Shown piece after piece: positions 9,153-18,811 of a DNA stretch of 31,872 bases (the stretch's first letter is position 1; each line of letters starts with the position of its first letter). The stretch is from Gammaproteobacteria bacterium. Lineage in GTDB: Bacteria; Pseudomonadota; Gammaproteobacteria; SZUA-229. Position numbers and translations under genes: made by a program. The stretch spans positions 1-31,872 of the forward strand of contig JARFQK010000263.1 in NCBI GenBank assembly GCA_029287815.1, written 5' to 3'. Under the pieces are notes generated by a model that was not told where the DNA came from, did no database searches, and worked only from the letters and a program-made list of their open reading frames with translations.

Positions 9153-9881
9153 TTGCGCATCACCCGAATCTACTACGCCGGCGACATCAATCCCGGTAAG
9201 ACAATCACGTTGTCGCCGAATGCGTCGAATCACTTGATTCGTGTGTTACGTTGTCGACAAGGCACGCCCTTGACCGTTTTCAATGGTGGCGGTGGCGAGT
9301 ACGCCGCTGTTCTGCTGGATCAGAATCCCAGGGCAGTCAGCGTTGGTATCAATGAATACACCGGCGCGAACCGCGAATCACCGCTGCAACTGGTACTGCT
9401 TCAGGGTATTTCCCGTAGCGACCATATGGACAGCACCATCCAGAAAGTAACCGAACTGGGCACGAGCGCGATCTATCCGGTGATCTGTGAGCGATCCCAC
9501 AGTGTCGGACAAGACCGCATCAGGAGAAAACACGATCGCTGGCAACAAATCATCATCAGTGCGTGCGAACAAAGCGGGAGAAACCGACTGCCCCAGCTGC
9601 ACGAGCCGGTATCACTCGATGCAGCCATAATCCGTGCTGCCAGTCCGAGCAGACTGGTGCTCGATCCGACCGCTGCCGACAGTATCAGGACCATTTCACA
9701 ACAGCCCAGGCAGGTAGCCGTGCTGTGCGGGCCGGAAGGCGGCCTGACTCAACAGGAGATCGAAACGGCATGTCGGGCGGGCTTCACCAGGATTTCATTC
9801 GGACCTCGAATACTGCGCACTGAAACGGCAGGTCCAGCTTTTATATCTGTTCTACAGGCCTTGTGGGGCGATATGGGCTAA
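9153..9881 (+). CDS. rsmE: 16S rRNA m3U1498 methyltransferase
   Basis: HLIRVLR, QKVTELG, ACEQSGR, GPEGGLT, FGPRILRTETAG; TTG start. Confidence 0.95.
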   Translation: MRITRIYYAGDINPGKTITLSPNASNHLIRVLRCRQGTPLTVFNGGGGEYAAVLLDQNPRAVSVGINEYTGANRESPLQLVLLQGISRSDHMDSTIQKVTELGTSAIYPVICERSHSVGQDRIRRKHDRWQQIIISACEQSGRNRLPQLHEPVSLDAAIIRAASPSRLVLDPTAADSIRTISQQPRQVAVLCGPEGGLTQQEIETACRAGFTRISFGPRILRTETAGPAFISVLQALWGDMG

Positions 9882-9923: not shown

Positions 9924-10261
9924 TGTTGCGTAATTCGCTGGTGAAATAAGCCGCATCGGTCGTGCGTACCATCCTAGCGATCGAATTCGCTAGACTGGCA
10001 TCGATACGTACGACGCAACATGCTCATTTTAGTTGATCCACAGATGAACACCGATAAACGCAGAGATTTTGTCAACGCTTAGCCCGCATTTCTCACCAGG
10101 CGGACGCATCATCCGTTGAATCGTTTAAAGGGCTACCGTGCGGTTACGGTTTGTCATATCTGGTTTTAGGAACACGCTGGCGTAGCAACAACAAAACATA
10201 CGCGTTAATCTGCGTTCATCCGCGGACAAAAAAAAAGAATCTACCAACGAATTGCGTAACA
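9924..10261. repeat. Nested inverted-repeat complex between convergent rsmE and chpC
   Basis: Outer IR 9924-9942 / 10243-10261 (16/19); inner IR 10037-10064 / 10199-10226 (21/28); central family A copy at 10080-10100; small hairpin CTAGCGA/TCGCTAG near 9974-9993. Confidence 0.7.
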
Positions 10262-10353: not shown

Positions 10354-10827
10354 TCATATTGCGGCCTGTAGCAGCATTTGCTCGATCGCTCTGATATCGA
10401 GAATTCCGGCTGCTGCTCCGTTGATTCTTACTTTCTTTGCGATCATTGGATGCTGCTCCGTGTCGTAATCGTCGGGTTTGACCTGGTCGCGAGAGAAAGT
10501 ACTGACATGGGGCACACCGTGCATCGCCAATCCGATGTACGGATACTCCGGCTCCTCGTCCTCGCTGGCCGAATAGATCACGGCGACCTGTGTGTTCAGA
10601 TTGACCGCTTGAGCCTGATCGCCAGCTGCAGCCTCATAGGAAACCACCGGCAACTCGACGCCACGCCAACGGGCTTTACCCAGCAGCCATCGCGGCGAGT
10701 TATCCGGTTGACGCACCTCCTGTACAGAGATAATCTCTGCGACCGCGGCGTTCGGAACCACCACCAGTTTGTTTTTCAGCGTCAGAATGATACTTTTTAT
10801 CAACCGATTGCTCTGTTCCACGATCAC
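10354..10827 (-). CDS. chpC: CheW-like coupling protein (ChpC type)
   Basis: VVPNAAVAEII, WLLGKARWRGVELPVVSYE; GTG start shares 1 nt with the chpA stop; typical last gene of Chp clusters. Confidence 0.85.
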   Translation of the reverse strand: MIVEQSNRLIKSIILTLKNKLVVVPNAAVAEIISVQEVRQPDNSPRWLLGKARWRGVELPVVSYEAAAGDQAQAVNLNTQVAVIYSASEDEEPEYPYIGLAMHGVPHVSTFSRDQVKPDDYDTEQHPMIAKKVRINGAAAGILDIRAIEQMLLQAAI

Positions 10828-13800
10828 TATGCCTGCAATATGTTATTGATATTTTTCAACAGTTCTTCTTCCTGATAAGGTTTGCCCAGATATTCGTTGA
10901 CGCCGATTTCCATCGCTTTTTCCTTGTGTTTTTCGCCCGTTCGGGACGTGATCATGATGATAGGAAGATCCTTCAGACGCTCGTCATTGCGGATGTACGA
11001 GGCCAGTTCAAAACCATCCATTCTGGGCATCTCGATATCCAGCAACATCAGATCCGGCTTGGTTTCGAGAAGCTGATTGGTCGCATCGATGCCATCTTTT
11101 GCGAGCAGAACAGTGATCCCATTTCGTTCGAGCATACGAGCGGTGACCTTGCGAATCGTGATCGAATCATCCACTACCATGATGGTTCTCTCTTCGGATT
11201 TCTGCTCAGCAACCGTTTCGACTTCCGCCTCGACCTGTTCCGCATCCCGGATCAGATTTTCGGTCACGACCAGGGCAGCCAGTTCAATGATCAACACCAC
11301 ACGGCCATCCGCGAGAATAGTCGCACCGGTAATACCTCTAACGCTGCCGAGCTGGTGACCGACCGGCTTGACGACGACTTCACGCCGGCCTACCAGCTCA
11401 TCGACGTGCAACGCATAATGGTAGTTACCAACCTGGGCAAGCAGCACCGGGAAAAGCCCGTAATATTCGCTGTAGTTAGGCCTCTGGCCGCTGAGCAGCT
11501 GTCCGAGGTGCTTCAGTTCATATTCAACGCCATTGAACGAGTAGCGTTGCTGGTCACTTTCGTAGAACCGCTGCAACTCGGCTCCGGTCACACGTACCAC
11601 GCCTTCGATACTCGCTAAAGGTATGGCGTAAATGTCCTCGGCTGCGCTCACCAGCAACGCCTGATTGATCGCCAGGGTCAGTGGTAGACGGATCGTGAAT
11701 TCGGTGCCTTTTCCCGGAAAAGTGTCGATTTCCAGCACGCCGCCGAGCTGTTTGAGTTCAGCATCGACGACGTCCATGCCGACACCGCGGCCAGCAACCT
11801 GGGATACCTTTTCCGCAGTACTAAACCCCGATTTGAGAATGAGCTGCAGAACCTCACGGTCACTGACTTTGCTGTCTGCATCGAGCAGGCCTTGCTGCAC
11901 CGCCTTCATGCGGATCGCGCCTGCATTGATGCCCGAGCCGTCGTCCTTGACCACCATCATGACGTCTCCACCCTGACGATCCACAACGATCGTGATTTTT
12001 CCAATTTCCGGTTTTCCTGCCGCGATTCGCTTGTCCGGCGCTTCGATGCCATGCGCGACCGCGTTGCGCAACATGTGCTCCAAGGGTGCAACGATTCGAT
12101 CCAGAATGGTACGGTCCAGCTCATTGCTGTCGCCGATGATTTCAAGTTCGACTTCTTTGCCCAGTTCCCGCGCAGTCTGGCGAATGATTCTGCGCAGACG
12201 CGTTGATAGCCCACCAAAACGCACCATGCGTGTGCGCATCAGGCCTTCCTGCAATTCCGTGCTGACACGCGACTCCTGCAACAGCAAGGTTTCAGAATCA
12301 CGCACAATTTCACTCAGAATCTCTCGGATACTCTCGACGTCGCCGGCTGTCTCGGTCAGACTTCGGGAAAGCTGCTGCATGGTCGAGTATCGGTCCATTT
12401 CCAATGGATCGAAGTCTTCATCATACTGGTTGGATTCCTTCTCGAACGAAGAGCGAATCTGTATTTCGGTTTCAATTTCCAGATTTCGCAGCTGTTGTTT
12501 CAGACGCACGACGGTCGATTCGAGTTCGTTCAGGTTGAAGCCTATGTCGCTCATCTGTTTGCCCATGCGAGCATGGTAGATATTGACCTCACCAGCGGAG
12601 TTGACGAGCTCGTTGAGCAGGTCTGCACGGACCCGAATCTGATCCTGGGCATCACGATAATTGGTGTCCGTCGCGCGCTCGCCCCATTGCGGCCTGTCGA
12701 TTTTGTCGGTCGCGCGACGACCCAGGTTAGGCCCAGGCTGATCTGACTTGGATTGCTCGATAACGCCCGGGGGTGCCTCTTTCGAACCTACCTGGTCGTT
12801 GGCCGCCGGCTCCTTGAGATCATCGAGCTCGAGGTCATAGCGTTCGATCGAACGCTTCTCGAGTACCCGTCCGCTCATCAATGCTTCGACCTGAGCGATG
12901 ATGTCACTCGCAGTATCGACCGGCGCCCGGTCTTTCACGTTTTTCAGCATCTCTGCGAGGCGGTCCACCGAAGCATTCAGCGTATCGAACAGCAGCCTGT
13001 TGGCCTCGACCTGTTTGTCTGCCACCTTGATGACGAGAGATTCAAGCAGGTGAGTCAGATCACCGACAGGCGCGAGTTCCGCCATACGCGCACCGCCCTT
13101 CAGGGTGTGCATATAGCGCTGCAATTGGTGAGTGCTCTCCTCATCATCAGGATTGCCAGTCAATTTCTGCAGCAGTTCTTCACAATTTTCGATCAGCTCG
13201 TCGGCTTCTTCGATAAAGATATCAATCAGATCGCTGTCAATATCACCATACGCAATCTCTGTTGTCGTGCGGACCGCTAACTCGGCAACGGGCTCGACGA
13301 CAGGCTCTTCAACCGGGGCCTCAACAGGCATTTCGGCACCATCGGTCGGCGGTTCCAGATCCACAGCGTCTGCAGCCACTGATTCGAACGCTTCGACAGC
13401 AGACGCGTCCGCTGCTTGATCATGATCCTGCTGAATTTCCGGTTCACTTTGGACACCACTTTCGTGCGAGGAGTGTTGCAACTGATGCTGCAACTCGATC
13501 TGCACTGCCCTGTTGATACGCTCCGCTAGTGCTTTGTCCGCAGCAGGCATCTGCCCCGACTTGATCTGCTCCAGCATCGAGCGGACGGTTTGCGCAACCT
13601 CCTCAAACAGCTGCACGACCGCGTCATCGATGGATAAATCCCGGCCTTCCTGCCTGATCTTTATGTATTTCTCGACTGCTCCACACAGTTCTGCGATTTG
13701 ATCAATTTCAGCCGTGCGTGCGCTGCCATAAAGCGTGTGAAACGCACGCACCAGATCCTTGCTGGCAGTCAGCGGCTGGGCGTTCTCTTTATGAGCGGTG

Positions 13801-16688
13801 AGTAATTCGTTGACGAGCTGCAGGTGCCCGATGCTCTCATCGTAGTAAATCTGGAACAACACCGGATCCATGCCCGCAGCAAGTTCATTGATGTCCGTTT
13901 TCGCCGCTTGCGCTTGTTGTTCGTCGATTTCAAAGGCCCACCCGTCCGCCAGTGCCGAATCGTCGAACTGCAAGCCATCGTCCTGATTAATCTCAACAGT
14001 ATCAACCGATTCTGCGGGCAATGGCCGGGCGGCATGGACACCATCATCGCCGGCCTCTGAGAGCTCAGCTGCTGTATGTGAGCTTGGCTGTTCAGCTTCA
14101 AATTCATCAAGATCTGGCCAACCGGCGTCGGGTTCATCGGCAGCGGGTTCGGTGTCTTCAACGCTGAACTCTTGATCGGCCGCGCGTTCCGCTTGATCGA
14201 GCGCGGCATTGGCCACCGCCAGGCTCTGCTCAACCGCGGTTGCAGCCGTACCCTGATCATCGTCAGCTTGGTCTGAGGCGGTCGCGCTGACAGGATGCGC
14301 GGCGAAATCGCCGGTTTCAGCGCCCTCAGGCAAATTATTCAGTTTTTTTTTGACCGTATCCTCGTTGGCTGCTGGAGGCGGCTTGCCTTCAGCCAGCGCG
14401 TGCGCGGTTGCCATCAAACGCGGAACCCTTGCGATCGGCTCGCGATTGCCCTGCAATTGTTCGATCAGTTGTGGCAGCACGGCCACAGCATCGTCGAGCG
14501 CACCAAACACCCTGGTGTCGGCTTCGATCTTCTTGTCAATCACGCGGTTGAGCATGTTTTCGAATTTCCACGCAAACTCGCCGATCAACTGGGCGCCGAT
14601 CAAACGACCGCTACCCTTAAGCGTATGAAAGCATCGACGCACGACACTCAGCGCCTGTTCGTCGGAAGTATTCGACTTCCACAGCGGCAGGTTGGTACTC
14701 AGCTCTGCGAGGACTTCCTGGGCTTCTTCAACAAAGATCTCGAGTATCTCAGCATCTGCATCATCACCAAGAATGTCGAAGTCGTCATATTCAGAGCCTA
14801 CGGACTCTACCGCAGGTTCGGGTGTTTGTATTTCGGGCTCCGCCTTCTCCGGCTCGCTCTCCCTTAGCGGTTGTTTGAATTCAACGATGTCGGCTTCGTG
14901 CGCCGTCGTTTCTGCGGACGTCGCTTCAGCCTCGACCTCGACCTGTTGATCAGCCATCTCATTGGACGCCGGTGTCGCAGCCGATGAGGCGAATCGCTCA
15001 CACACTTCGCTCAACGATGACAGTGCGTTCTCGCCGGTTCGCAGACCCTCCTCGACACCGGGGCGACCGTCCAGCATCGCTTCAAAGAAATATTCGATCG
15101 AGGTGACGACATCGGCAATCTTGTCCTGCTCCTGAACGTCAGGCTGGTGACCATTATCCAGCAATGCGACCTTGACATAGTGCTTCAACTTCGCCAGCAT
15201 GGTCTCGACCTGGGCCATCGACAGCATCATCGAAACGCCTCTGGTTTCTTCCAGCAGGTTCAGAACAGTCTGCAACGACTCTTGCTGAGCGTGACCGCTG
15301 ATGAATGACAAGATCGCATCTTTCGCATCAGTGAAGTTTTGCAATCCCTGACCCAGCGTCGTAGTCAGCACCTCGCGATACTCAGCAGCTGGCACCACCC
15401 GGTCTTCATCATCAGCCAGATCAGGAGCGCCGGTGCGCTTCGCCACGTAATTGTCGAGATCGGCCTCGGCGGACAACAATTCACCCGCTATGGTGAAGAC
15501 AAGCTCTTCGTCTGCCTCGGTGTTTTGCTCAGTGATGCTCTGGATCCTGTCCTTTTGTTCGAGCACTTTTTGCCTTGCTTCACCCAGACCCAGCATACCG
15601 TAAGTATCGCCTATTTTGACCAGTTGCTCGGTCAGTGGCGCGAGTTCCGCGACATTACGGTCACTGCTGTGAATGAACAACTCGAGGGCATCCTTGACCT
15701 GTGACAGATCCTCCTTGATTCCCTGGGATACGGTTGCAAACAGTTCGGCGTTCAGACCACCGACCGTCGATTCGGCCTGCTCCTGGGTCGAGCTGAGCAG
15801 TTCATTGAGGTTATAGATCTCTCTAACCCTACTGATGCGCTCCCCGGACGATTCGCTATGGGCGATGTAGTAGAGAGCGTTCTTCAGGAGTTCCTGCGAA
15901 TAACGGGTCGCAAAATCCTCCTCACCACAATCGATCACCAGCTTGATCTGGCGGTCCGCATGACCCAGCAACATCTTCACGCTAACGCCAGCGTCAATGC
16001 CATCGTCGCCCAAGCCCTCGAGCAGGGCTGCAATCACGGACCAGTAACGCCGGACAGACTGCTCGGCCGAAGCCTTGTGCAGCGCCACGATCACGGCGAG
16101 CATACGTTTTACGCCGGCATGTTTCTTGTCGTTTTTGAGCAGATCGAGCAAGCCAAGCTGAAAATGCATACGCAGCCGCTTCGCCTGGCCCTTGAGCTTA
16201 CCAGGTTCGATGACAGGTGCTTCAATCTCCTGCTCCTCGATCTCCGCTGCGTCCATATCCGGAAAGAAAAGCACGTTCTCTGACAGCAGGCTCTGTTTGC
16301 AAACGGCTCGCATGTCGTTCATCAATGGCAACAGGGCCATTGGCGTGTCTTTTTTGCCCGCCTGCAAACCCTCGAGATAGTCCGGCAGCTGCAGCAACGC
16401 CCGCATCAGCACATCGTAGGCGTCTTCTCTGCTCTCTGCCTGGCCCTCGAGTATCGCTCTGGCGGTATTCTCCATTTCCTCGGCAAGCATGGCCGCACCA
16501 AAAATCTCGACCATCTGCAAGGTACCGTAGACCAGACGCAATCCCTCGATGCAATCATGCATCAGACCTTCGTCATCGTTGTGCTCGATGTATTCTGACA
16601 AAGACGACTGCGCATCATTGATCACGGCGTCCAGCTGCGACTTGACCCAGCTCAGAGAGTTGTATTCTATCGTTCCGCTAGCCTTCAT
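10827..16688 (-). CDS. chpA: Pil-Chp hybrid histidine kinase (degenerate N-terminal Hpt region, three His-Hpt domains, CheA kinase, CheW, receiver)
   Basis: N-terminal EYNSLSWVK; HTLKGSG, HTLYGSA, HTLKGGA; EHMLRNAVAHGIE, DDGSGI, GFSTA..GRGVGMDVV; CheW domain; receiver VDDS..DIEMPRMDG..KPY. Confidence 0.95.
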   Translation of the reverse strand: MKASGTIEYNSLSWVKSQLDAVINDAQSSLSEYIEHNDDEGLMHDCIEGLRLVYGTLQMVEIFGAAMLAEEMENTARAILEGQAESREDAYDVLMRALLQLPDYLEGLQAGKKDTPMALLPLMNDMRAVCKQSLLSENVLFFPDMDAAEIEEQEIEAPVIEPGKLKGQAKRLRMHFQLGLLDLLKNDKKHAGVKRMLAVIVALHKASAEQSVRRYWSVIAALLEGLGDDGIDAGVSVKMLLGHADRQIKLVIDCGEEDFATRYSQELLKNALYYIAHSESSGERISRVREIYNLNELLSSTQEQAESTVGGLNAELFATVSQGIKEDLSQVKDALELFIHSSDRNVAELAPLTEQLVKIGDTYGMLGLGEARQKVLEQKDRIQSITEQNTEADEELVFTIAGELLSAEADLDNYVAKRTGAPDLADDEDRVVPAAEYREVLTTTLGQGLQNFTDAKDAILSFISGHAQQESLQTVLNLLEETRGVSMMLSMAQVETMLAKLKHYVKVALLDNGHQPDVQEQDKIADVVTSIEYFFEAMLDGRPGVEEGLRTGENALSSLSEVCERFASSAATPASNEMADQQVEVEAEATSAETTAHEADIVEFKQPLRESEPEKAEPEIQTPEPAVESVGSEYDDFDILGDDADAEILEIFVEEAQEVLAELSTNLPLWKSNTSDEQALSVVRRCFHTLKGSGRLIGAQLIGEFAWKFENMLNRVIDKKIEADTRVFGALDDAVAVLPQLIEQLQGNREPIARVPRLMATAHALAEGKPPPAANEDTVKKKLNNLPEGAETGDFAAHPVSATASDQADDDQGTAATAVEQSLAVANAALDQAERAADQEFSVEDTEPAADEPDAGWPDLDEFEAEQPSSHTAAELSEAGDDGVHAARPLPAESVDTVEINQDDGLQFDDSALADGWAFEIDEQQAQAAKTDINELAAGMDPVLFQIYYDESIGHLQLVNELLTAHKENAQPLTASKDLVRAFHTLYGSARTAEIDQIAELCGAVEKYIKIRQEGRDLSIDDAVVQLFEEVAQTVRSMLEQIKSGQMPAADKALAERINRAVQIELQHQLQHSSHESGVQSEPEIQQDHDQAADASAVEAFESVAADAVDLEPPTDGAEMPVEAPVEEPVVEPVAELAVRTTTEIAYGDIDSDLIDIFIEEADELIENCEELLQKLTGNPDDEESTHQLQRYMHTLKGGARMAELAPVGDLTHLLESLVIKVADKQVEANRLLFDTLNASVDRLAEMLKNVKDRAPVDTASDIIAQVEALMSGRVLEKRSIERYDLELDDLKEPAANDQVGSKEAPPGVIEQSKSDQPGPNLGRRATDKIDRPQWGERATDTNYRDAQDQIRVRADLLNELVNSAGEVNIYHARMGKQMSDIGFNLNELESTVVRLKQQLRNLEIETEIQIRSSFEKESNQYDEDFDPLEMDRYSTMQQLSRSLTETAGDVESIREILSEIVRDSETLLLQESRVSTELQEGLMRTRMVRFGGLSTRLRRIIRQTARELGKEVELEIIGDSNELDRTILDRIVAPLEHMLRNAVAHGIEAPDKRIAAGKPEIGKITIVVDRQGGDVMMVVKDDGSGINAGAIRMKAVQQGLLDADSKVSDREVLQLILKSGFSTAEKVSQVAGRGVGMDVVDAELKQLGGVLEIDTFPGKGTEFTIRLPLTLAINQALLVSAAEDIYAIPLASIEGVVRVTGAELQRFYESDQQRYSFNGVEYELKHLGQLLSGQRPNYSEYYGLFPVLLAQVGNYHYALHVDELVGRREVVVKPVGHQLGSVRGITGATILADGRVVLIIELAALVVTENLIRDAEQVEAEVETVAEQKSEERTIMVVDDSITIRKVTARMLERNGITVLLAKDGIDATNQLLETKPDLMLLDIEMPRMDGFELASYIRNDERLKDLPIIMITSRTGEKHKEKAMEIGVNEYLGKPYQEEELLKNINNILQA

Positions 16689-16738: not shown

Positions 16739-18811
16739 CTAGCTATCGAGAACCACGGTCTCAAGCTTACCCGACTCTGTCGCCGGGAGCTTGAATCCGG
16801 ATACCGAACGTTGCAGCTCGTTGGCCAGTTCATTCAAGGAGTTCAGGGACGAAGAAGTCTCTTCAGTGCCCTCCGACGTCCTCAACGTAATCTCCTGAAT
16901 GACGTTCATGGTCTTGGAAACATCACTGGCGATTGTGGACTGTTTCTTTGCGGATTCTGAAATACCTTGAATAAGATTAGCCAGATTCGTTGACACTGTT
17001 TCAATTTCTCGCAGTGCCTCGCCAGCGTCCTCGGCCCGCTTGGCACCGTTGACCACACCAGCCGTACTCACTTCCATGGATGTGATGGCTTCGCTGGTGT
17101 CCGCCTGAATCGTATTGACCAGTGTCTCGATCTGCTTGGTCGCATTACCTGCGCGCTCAGCCAACCGCTGAACCTCATCCGCCACAACCGCGAAGCCACG
17201 GCCTGCATCACCGGCAGTCGAAGCCTGAATGGCCGCATTCAGCGCGAGAATATTGGTCTGATCGGCAATTTCAGTGATAAGCCCGACGATATCGCCGATC
17301 TCCTGTGAGGATTCCCCCAGACGTTTGATGCGTTTCGACGTCTCCTGAATGGTTTCGCGTATTGCCTCCATGCTGGTGATAGTTTCACGCACCACACCGG
17401 CACCCTTCTGCGCAATTTCCATCGATTGAAGCGCAACCTCTGCTGATTCGGCGGCCTCTTTGGTCACATTCTGCATTGAATCAGCCATATCGGTAATCGC
17501 CGCACTGGCAGAAGCAATCTCTCGGGCCTGGTGATTACTCGCCTCCGCGAGTGACAACGCGGTGCCCTGCGCGTGCGAGGTTGACGTCGTCACTTCGGTC
17601 GAGGTATTGTTGATCGTGGTCACCAGCGAACGCAGCGCATCGATCGCAAAATTCACAGAATCAGCTATTGCACCTGTAATTTCCTCGGTGACCGTTGTGT
17701 GTACGGTCAAATCACCATCTGCCAGATTCGCCATTTCGTCGAGCAGCCTGAGAATCGCACGCTGATTCCGACGGTTGTTTTCCAGCGCTTGCTCCTCTCT
17801 TGCTTTCGCATCACGCAACATCAAAAAGCCACCAATGACGATCAGCACGACAGCCAGCACACCGAAGCCGACACCAACGAGCTGAATGATATCGAGAATC
17901 TTTGTCTGGCCCGAAATCGCGCTCCTGAATGTCTCGAGATCGCCCAGCAAGTTCGCGCTACCGGTCGTAACCTGACTGGCGGCATCCTTGACTTCGAAGA
18001 GTTCAGGCGAAAGTTCGAGAATTCCGGCGATGTTATCGCTGACCGCGCTGATCAGCATGGCTACCTCGCGCAGCTTGGCAATGGCTTCTTTATCAGTCAC
18101 TTTCTCGATCCGCAAAGAATCCGAGCCTTTCAGCAATCCCTCGAGCACCCTGCCAAAAAGCGCTGCATCACGACCAAAACGGTCAGCTGCTGCAGCCGCT
18201 TGTTCACCGCCAGCAAGCACCTGGTTGAGGTTGTTCTTGATGCGTTGCGACAGCATCATCTGGCGGCTAGCCAGATAGATTTGTCGCGACGAGCCTTTCT
18301 TTTTCATCAACACACCGACCACTTCGTCAGAAAAGGTCAACAGCTGGGGAATGAAGCTGTCGATAACGGTGTACAGCTCACGCACTTCTGAGATCGACTT
18401 TCTACCGTTGATGATGATCGAAACGTCGTTATTGAAATTGCGCCAGGCCACTTCAACACGCTCCAATGGTGTTATCAGTTCCTGATGCAGCTGGGGTATC
18501 CCGCTCAGGCTGTTACCCGTGCGGTAGACGTCGAGAATTTCCTCGAAACGTCCGCGGCTCGCGATCAACGCTGTGAAGTCCGACTCCTTGCCGGACGATG
18601 CGCCCAAGGCCTGCGTGGCCATGCTCTGCGACAACAATCGCAGTTCGGAAGCCATTTCGACATGCTGCTGCTGGTTGGCACGTTTGTTACCCACGTACAA
18701 GAGACTTCCCAACATCACAAAAATCGATATGAACAGTGTAATGCCCAAAAGCAGCAACGGTTTGCTGACCGATCGCACTTGAGATGATGTTTTTTTCTTC
18801 TTAGCGCTCAT
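16739..18811 (-). CDS. pilJ: Pil-Chp methyl-accepting chemoreceptor
   Basis: Two TM segments around PilJ-type periplasmic domains, [55 protein letters not shown]. Confidence 0.95.

Follow-up and report, generated by a model that had tools for sequence, protein, structure and literature searches.

A nine-adenine run behind the first Hpt domain of ChpA as a candidate slippage site in uncultured Gammaproteobacteria

Can a single chemosensory kinase gene supply both a full-length kinase and a kinase-less scaffold? This question is raised by chpA in a 31,872-nucleotide (nt) stretch of DNA from a gammaproteobacterium (contig JARFQK010000263.1 of assembly GCA_029287815.1; hereafter the window). The gene, located at 10827..16688 on the minus strand, was recognized from its open reading frame (ORF), its translation and Pfam matches as encoding a Pil-Chp hybrid histidine kinase of 1953 amino acids (aa). 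Within it, an uninterrupted run of nine adenines (A9; AAA AAA AAA, K780-K782, 14343..14351, minus strand) follows the first canonical Hpt domain and is identical in seven lineages. From sequence comparison, we give about even credence to the view that this run, placed where the first Hpt domain gives way to the linker, is kept by selection as a slippage site, acting mainly through slippage of RNA polymerase and giving rise to the full kinase plus a short form.

The A9 run and its shifted reading frames

On the minus strand, the run stands in the context GTC AAA AAA AAA CTG AAT AAT and in an AT-rich dip, with a GC content of 0.48 versus about 0.6 on both flanks. The initial annotation had pointed out this run and the immediate stops in both shifted frames, and both were found in place. 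Read as A8 (or A11), the run leads to TGA (14339..14341, minus strand) and a product that would end in ...VKKN; as A10, or with a -1 ribosomal shift, it leads to TAA (14335..14337, minus strand) and a product that would end in ...KKKTE. An in-phase slippery heptamer, A_AAA_AAA, is present inside the three AAA codons.

The site lies just past the first His-bearing Hpt domain, as had been annotated. This domain covers residues 647-744 (14457..14750, minus strand; Pfam Hpt, E value 3e-15 with residues 620-800 as the query) and carries His688 in the motif CFHTLKGSG; its conserved helix block ends at G769, 11 codons ahead of the run. Residues 1-600 (14889..16688, minus strand) form a FimL-like region. 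Precomputed matches to FimL_2nd and FimL_C (PF26379, PF27543) are available for a homolog 95-98% identical to the window protein (P0003) and for three clade homologs (P0122, P0123 and P0125); a local Pfam search gave no such match for residues 1-640. The FimL-like N-terminus is 65-78% identical across the genus. A first protein search returned mostly multi-Hpt proteins of Marinobacter and was of little help.

Under the slippage reading, faithful copying of the run would yield in-frame mRNA and the 1953-aa kinase, and in a fraction of the transcripts the run would gain or lose an A through slipping of RNA polymerase. Unstimulated slippage of ribosomes on the in-phase A_AAA_AAA heptamer may contribute. 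Either shifted frame would end within 1-2 codons in this genome, giving a product of ~782-784 aa. Such a product would comprise the FimL-like N-terminal scaffold and one phosphorylatable Hpt domain (His688) and would lack Hpt2, Hpt3, the kinase core, the CheW domain and the receiver. The reading presumes a useful rate of slippage in these uncultured bacteria, slippage at the RNA level, and a functional short protein, for example a free FimL-like scaffold or a trans-acting Hpt.

The short form could also stand in for a separate FimL-like protein in the genus. With the ChpA N-terminus as the query, no separate fimL-like gene or paralog was found in any genome of the genus. We had considered the absence of fimL as a marker of the species with the run; since no genome of the genus shows a second copy with this query, with or without the run, this comparison does not discriminate the carriers and was dropped.

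Selection against slippage-prone runs becomes apparent in many bacteria at a length of nine A or T (PMC1088944). The genome assembly (3.08 Mb, 428 contigs, 55% GC) contains only 10 A/T runs at least nine bases long. Its 1,369 long ORFs hold 65 KKK triplets, of which a single one, that of chpA, is written AAAAAAAAA, compared with ~6.6 expected from an AAA share of 0.466 among Lys codons. Outside chpA, this genome thus avoids writing KKK as A9. Just one further A9 is coding; it lies on contig C104 (4553-4561), where it makes up codons 3-5 (TTG AGC AAA AAA AAA TAT) of an lpd-like flavoprotein gene (KYDVVVIGAGPGGY); the remaining A/T runs of at least nine lie in short or non-coding frames.

A second A9 run of the window (10228-10236, plus strand) is situated in the gap between a convergent rsmE-like gene (9153-9881) and chpC (10354-10827), and a terminator scan found no terminator at this run. 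Stretches of poly-C or poly-G, 17-56 bases long, occur on contigs C42, C106, C145, C181, C233 and C349, some of them at or near a contig end (C42 and C106). These are most likely sequencing artefacts in a fragmented metagenome-assembled genome (MAG; 428 contigs, 85% complete).

Conservation of the run and of its surroundings

The initial annotation had proposed that homologs be aligned at the nucleotide level and inspected for the A run, the choice of AAA over AAG and nearby out-of-frame stops. Within a clade of seven lineages, the outcome was positive on all three points. In the aligned codons, AAA AAA AAA CTG A is identical in 3 of 11 species of the genus (G000, which is the genome of the window, G001 and G009), and the flanking codons all differ. 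A fourth lineage (L050) came from a pattern scan of metagenome contigs that was anchored on the end of the Hpt domain rather than on the run, and three more (L113, L115 and L117, encoding P0122, P0123 and P0125) were added through a protein search. All seven have AAA AAA AAA C: the Lys codons at the run are AAA in 21 of 21 cases, and the next base is always C. In a tree of ChpA sequences, the carriers (G000 with the near-identical L042, G001, G009 and L050) formed one clade with 100/100 support, and no sequence outside that clade has the run. L113, L115 and L117, found later and not included in the tree, are nearest to L050, at a protein identity of 0.83-0.88 and a four-fold identity of 0.65-0.77. 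The family-wide pattern scan gave one extra match, in G053; its aligned codons (…GGT TAT TTT TGG TAC AAG GAT…) are unlike the chpA linker, and we took it as a chance match.

Synonymous sites across the carrier clade are near saturation. Between G000 and the other carriers, 36-39% of four-fold sites are identical (36-46% between the deeper lineages), and conserved Lys positions keep the same codon in only 53-59%. In the seven-way codon alignment, AAAAAAAAAC is nevertheless the third-longest invariant nucleotide block, and the only long one situated in a region of low protein identity (0.28 versus 0.74-0.98 for the others). The linker that follows the first Hpt domain (Hpt1) has 15 invariant residues among 171, three of which are K780-782. 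That the A9 is kept base for base in seven diverged lineages suggests that it is probably a selected slippage site.

The shifted frames are conserved in their effect. Both stop within 1-13 codons in all seven lineages, so that the product would be cut just after Hpt1. In the A8-type frame, CTGA stands right after the run in G000, G001 and G009, and the other four lineages stop 4 codons later with a 7-residue tail; a tail of KKKTE before the stop is common to 5 of the 7 lineages.

The same pattern might have arisen with no function at the nucleotide level, if a basic KKK patch is kept for the sake of the protein and its AAA codons come from descent and chance. KKK is indeed conserved as amino acids, the lineages amount to effectively ~3 independent ones, and all-AAA columns also make up 5 of the 38 other conserved Lys positions. 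Counting only all-Lys columns outside the run in which G000 has AAA, 5 of 19 are AAA in all seven lineages; conditioned in this way on the discovery genome, three adjacent all-AAA columns have a chance probability of ~0.018. Also, A9 is otherwise avoided in KKK, and the base after the run is invariant too. Together with an independent case in another genus described below, these observations make descent and chance an improbable explanation, and neutral codon choice at the run is unlikely.

We also considered the elements that surround the run. The initial annotation had likened the site to the stimulated -1 ribosomal frameshift of Escherichia coli dnaX, in which an internal Shine-Dalgarno (SD) sequence, an A-rich heptamer and a downstream hairpin act as one cassette. 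In this genome all three elements are present: an SD-like GAGGA (14359..14363, minus strand) stands 7 nt upstream of the run, the heptamer A_AAA_AAA is in phase, and a hairpin (14273..14329, minus strand) starts 13 nt downstream and folds as described at -27.1 kcal/mol. The hairpin hardly surpassed shuffled sequence (z about -1.8 to -1.9, with 10 of 200 shuffles reaching an equal fold) and was lost in a 181-nt context (z -0.2), and its 13-nt distance from the run exceeds the 5-9 nt that usually separate a slippery site from its hairpin.

GAGGA occurs only in G000 and near-identical strains; G001, G009, L050, L113, L115 and L117 lack it at the aligned position. In eight genes, we folded the 78 nt that follow the run and the 60 nt that precede it, and no structure was conserved; the folds of G001, G009 and L050 on both sides (downstream z 0.10, 0.06 and -0.72) did not surpass shuffled sequence and were unrelated structures. 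Like E. coli dnaX (A_AAA_AAG with SD and hairpin), chpA has an in-phase heptamer and a truncated outcome; unlike it, chpA has a heptamer ending in AAA rather than AAG and stimulators that are not conserved. With the stimulators not conserved, a dnaX-style cassette is not supported, and we regard it as very improbable. The carrier lineages share only the run and an early stop in each shifted frame.

Homopolymer runs past Hpt domains across the family

To place the A9 run in a wider context, 56 further full-length chpA genes were fetched from the family, whose members are uncultured MAGs under the labels Gammaproteobacteria, Thiotrichaceae or Thiotrichales. In genus g34 (4 species, G085-G088; loci L109-L112), the invariant sequence C TCC CCC CCC GTT contains a run of eight cytosines (C8) at chpA residues ~751-811, 4 codons past the end of Hpt1. 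Four-fold identity among these species is 0.33-0.40, that is, saturated, and both codons are rare: CCC accounts for 9-22% of Pro codons and TCC for 5-7% of Ser codons. The C8 holds the only all-CCC Pro columns of the gene, and its block ties for the longest invariant block. C or G runs of 8 or more number ~4-20 per genome. The shifted frames stop after 4 and 11 codons. As evidence, the C8 is independent of the A9 and statistically much stronger, and it occupies the same post-Hpt1 boundary; built from very rare codons, it is not explicable by a conserved KKK patch.

Runs of A were also found in other genera. In G016 of genus g7 (L101/L017), an A9 (GAA AAA AAA ATA) at residue ~782 lies ~20 codons after Hpt1 in an unalignable linker and is followed by a strong hairpin (z -2.7). 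Past the third Hpt domain (Hpt3), A9 or A8 runs occur in genera g3, g4, g5 and g11, and A8 in part of g6; the carriers are L104 (G020), L106 (G012), L090 (G013), L029 (G014), L107 (G041) and, in g6, L099, L102 and L103. There the context is ...LRRGExxD followed by KKN, KKK or EKK, with flanking codons filling out the run in three different codon phases. At the post-Hpt3 A9 sites, a stop follows within 4-20 codons in either shifted frame. G016 has AAA AAG at this place and no long run.

Altogether, runs of 9 or more are present in 8 chpA genes of the family, 7 of which have them within the first ~45 codons after Hpt1 or in the matching post-Hpt3 window. The background is ~3-4 internal sense-strand A9 runs per whole genome (G009, G016 and G020). 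No post-Hpt1 or post-Hpt3 run was found in most of the family (g13, g32 and g33), with one A9 elsewhere in the gene of G074 of g32. Outside the family, a run of 8 or more after Hpt1 is missing from the ChpA genes of Marinobacter, Bacterioplanes, Moraxella and others. As a separate observation, contig C42 of G020 carries two A9 runs 20 nt apart in one open frame of 266 aa (L183; DKKKSALVKKN).

Tentatively, then, chpA of this family may have acquired homopolymer tracts just past an Hpt domain repeatedly, with at least two of them (the A9 of the g1 clade and the C8 of g34) kept base for base, and such tracts may be a general source of kinase-less ChpA isoforms, in which a FimL-like scaffold would carry either one or three live Hpt domains. 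We hold this broader proposal with less confidence than the reading of the A9 run itself.

Tracts of this kind might instead be selected as a brake on translation or transcription, through stalling or sliding of ribosomes on poly-Lys AAA (or on Pro-Pro in g34) or through pausing of RNA polymerase, so as to tune ChpA dosage or co-translational folding, with any truncated products being waste. AAA-Lys runs and Pro-Pro are both known ribosome-stalling sequences, the A9 and C8 sites share one domain boundary, and the shifted-frame tails are very short and without conserved new sequence, all of which fits a brake. The rare TCC fixed in g34, which lengthens the C run, and the completion of post-Hpt3 A runs in three different phases speak against it, since they suggest that the length of the homopolymer matters and not the encoded amino acids. 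Moreover, the sites are only 4-11 codons past the helix end, where the Hpt domain would still sit in the ribosome tunnel. We regard a brake as rather unlikely.

The length of the run in assembled sequences bears on a further alternative. In 24 sequencing runs examined as Logan contigs, in which minority run lengths are dropped, and in the assemblies, A9 was in frame wherever the site was spanned, including a DNA contig from a ~96.5% identical strain (X3) and two RNA-library contigs (X15 and X20; consensus only). A gap over the run in the X1 contigs was discarded as a signal, with ~3x depth and gaps everywhere in them. No OFF alleles, i.e. short ORFs matching residues 1-782, were found for the A9 clade in the protein collection; the matches were contig-end partials or multiply broken genes. 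Broken chpA genes were seen in L219 (ENA ERZ25039508; 3 pieces, the first break not at a homopolymer) and L220 (ERZ25039591; >6 pieces). None of the broken genes comes from the A9 clade. Their contig_N-style names suggest error-prone long-read data, and the breaks have the look of indel errors made in assembly and not of recoding. Strain contigs also showed in-frame length polymorphism at two other places of chpA, namely 6- or 12-nt insertions (CCTCGA units) at window position 14929, in the acidic linker before Hpt1, and a 3-nt deletion at 14020, in the linker past the A9 run.

These data were weighed for phase variation at the DNA level, in which slipped-strand mispairing at the A9 (or at the C8 in g34) would make subpopulations switch between the full kinase (ON) and a truncated N-terminal product (OFF) and so make pilus signalling heterogeneous. 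Homopolymers inside ORFs are a classic contingency motif, which would fit A9 and C8 equally, and the Bordetella sensor kinase gene bvgS is subject to phase variation by a frameshift in a C run. Phase-variable tracts usually differ in length among strains; here, the run measures exactly 9 throughout the seven lineages and their strain-level assemblies and contigs, and the four g34 species all have exactly 8, as consensus lengths that would hide minority OFF cells. Neither an OFF allele nor a length variant was seen, the short N-terminal ORFs being partials or from error-ridden assemblies. Run conservation alone does not tell slippage during replication from slippage during transcription (Baranov et al., PMC1088944). 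On balance, phase variation appears unlikely.

Several points weigh against a selected slippage site in chpA. The codon-level probability of ~0.02 is only modest because the seven lineages amount to ~3 independent ones, four of them being fairly close to each other (four-fold identity 0.63-0.77) and G001 and G009 being sisters. Within the genus, 7 of the 10 other species lack the run, as does most of the family, so it is a lineage-specific feature rather than a general property of ChpA, and any function must be dispensable. The SD-like motif is not shared among the carrier lineages, and no conserved RNA structure was found upstream or downstream of the run among the genes folded. No mixed run lengths were seen in RNA, in assembled contigs that hide minority variants. 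As for the other tracts, C8 is no classic motif for slippage of RNA polymerase, so that the g34 site may work differently, and the post-Hpt3 window was defined after seeing the data.

Related slippage systems and meaning for Pil-Chp signalling

The neighbourhood of chpA agrees with its assignment. Besides three Hpt domains, Pfam matches of the protein comprise HATPase_c, CheW and a C-terminal receiver (Response_reg). Directly upstream lies a gene for a PilJ-like methyl-accepting chemotaxis protein (MCP; 16739..18811, minus strand; Pfam PilJ and MCPsignal), and directly downstream the chpC-like CheW gene (10354..10827, minus strand; Pfam CheW). By Pfam, the neighbours are a response-receiver (REC) gene, a CheW gene, the MCP gene with its N-terminal PilJ domain and the downstream CheW gene. 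This is a multi-Hpt hybrid kinase of the CheA class with a C-terminal receiver in a pilG/H-pilI-pilJ-chpA-chpC cluster.

The closest known system is dnaX of Thermus thermophilus (tau/gamma), whose A9 run leads to ~50% truncated product (PMC1088944). As in chpA, the A9 is in frame on the sense strand, standard decoding gives the long product, and run lengths other than multiples of three lead to C-terminal truncation within a few codons with no need for RNA stimulators (PMC1088944). The two differ in that dnaX encodes a clamp-loader subunit and has its run at seven-eighths of the gene, whereas chpA encodes a chemosensory kinase and has it at 40%; slippage has been demonstrated for Thermus dnaX, and the chpA site is a candidate known from its sequence and limited to one clade of a genus. 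Truncated products through transcriptional slippage are also described for spa33 and mxiA of Shigella flexneri (PMC5009743). By that account, these genes resemble chpA in having homopolymers within ORFs of a multi-protein machine and truncated variants beside the full-length proteins; they differ in being type III secretion genes of a virulence plasmid, unrelated to two-component signalling, with an unclear role of the truncated forms.

The predicted short ChpA would resemble FimL of Pseudomonas aeruginosa, a separate protein homologous to the N-terminus of ChpA, as a kinase-less scaffold, with FimL_2nd and FimL_C regions according to the precomputed matches of the homologs. FimL of P. aeruginosa comes from a paralogous gene, in contrast to the short ChpA, which would come from chpA itself and would keep a canonical His-bearing Hpt domain. 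Our literature search found no paper combining ChpA with transcriptional slippage, and a frameshift or an isoform of ChpA was described nowhere among the results when ChpA was searched together with frameshift, isoform and FimL; the accessible part of a 2016 recoding review has no mention of CheA, chemotaxis or histidine kinase.

The reading of the A9 of chpA as a slippage site is partly supported: the run is conserved, and a dnaX-style cassette is not. It would be a further case of the known truncating type of slippage, with a notable recurrence within one family. A genome-wide survey of A9/T9 runs set aside those whose slippage merely shortens the product and provides no new coding sequence to compare, so truncating cases are under-counted (PMC1088944). 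In-frame runs look like ordinary codons to gene callers, and such sites are therefore invisible in annotation. If true, the chpA site would be a clear case of this dnaX-like class.

Pseudomonas encodes the FimL scaffold as a separate gene, fimL. If slippage occurs at the A9 run, one gene would set the ratio of the full chemosensory kinase to a free scaffold or phosphotransfer module, and type IV pilus and cAMP signalling would thereby come under one more level of regulation. An evolutionary handle, and several natural variants besides, come from the post-Hpt1 C8 of g34 and from the A8/A9 runs past Hpt domains in other genera. If the proposal holds for them as well, recoding at the boundary between an Hpt domain and its linker would be a recurrent design in chpA of this family.

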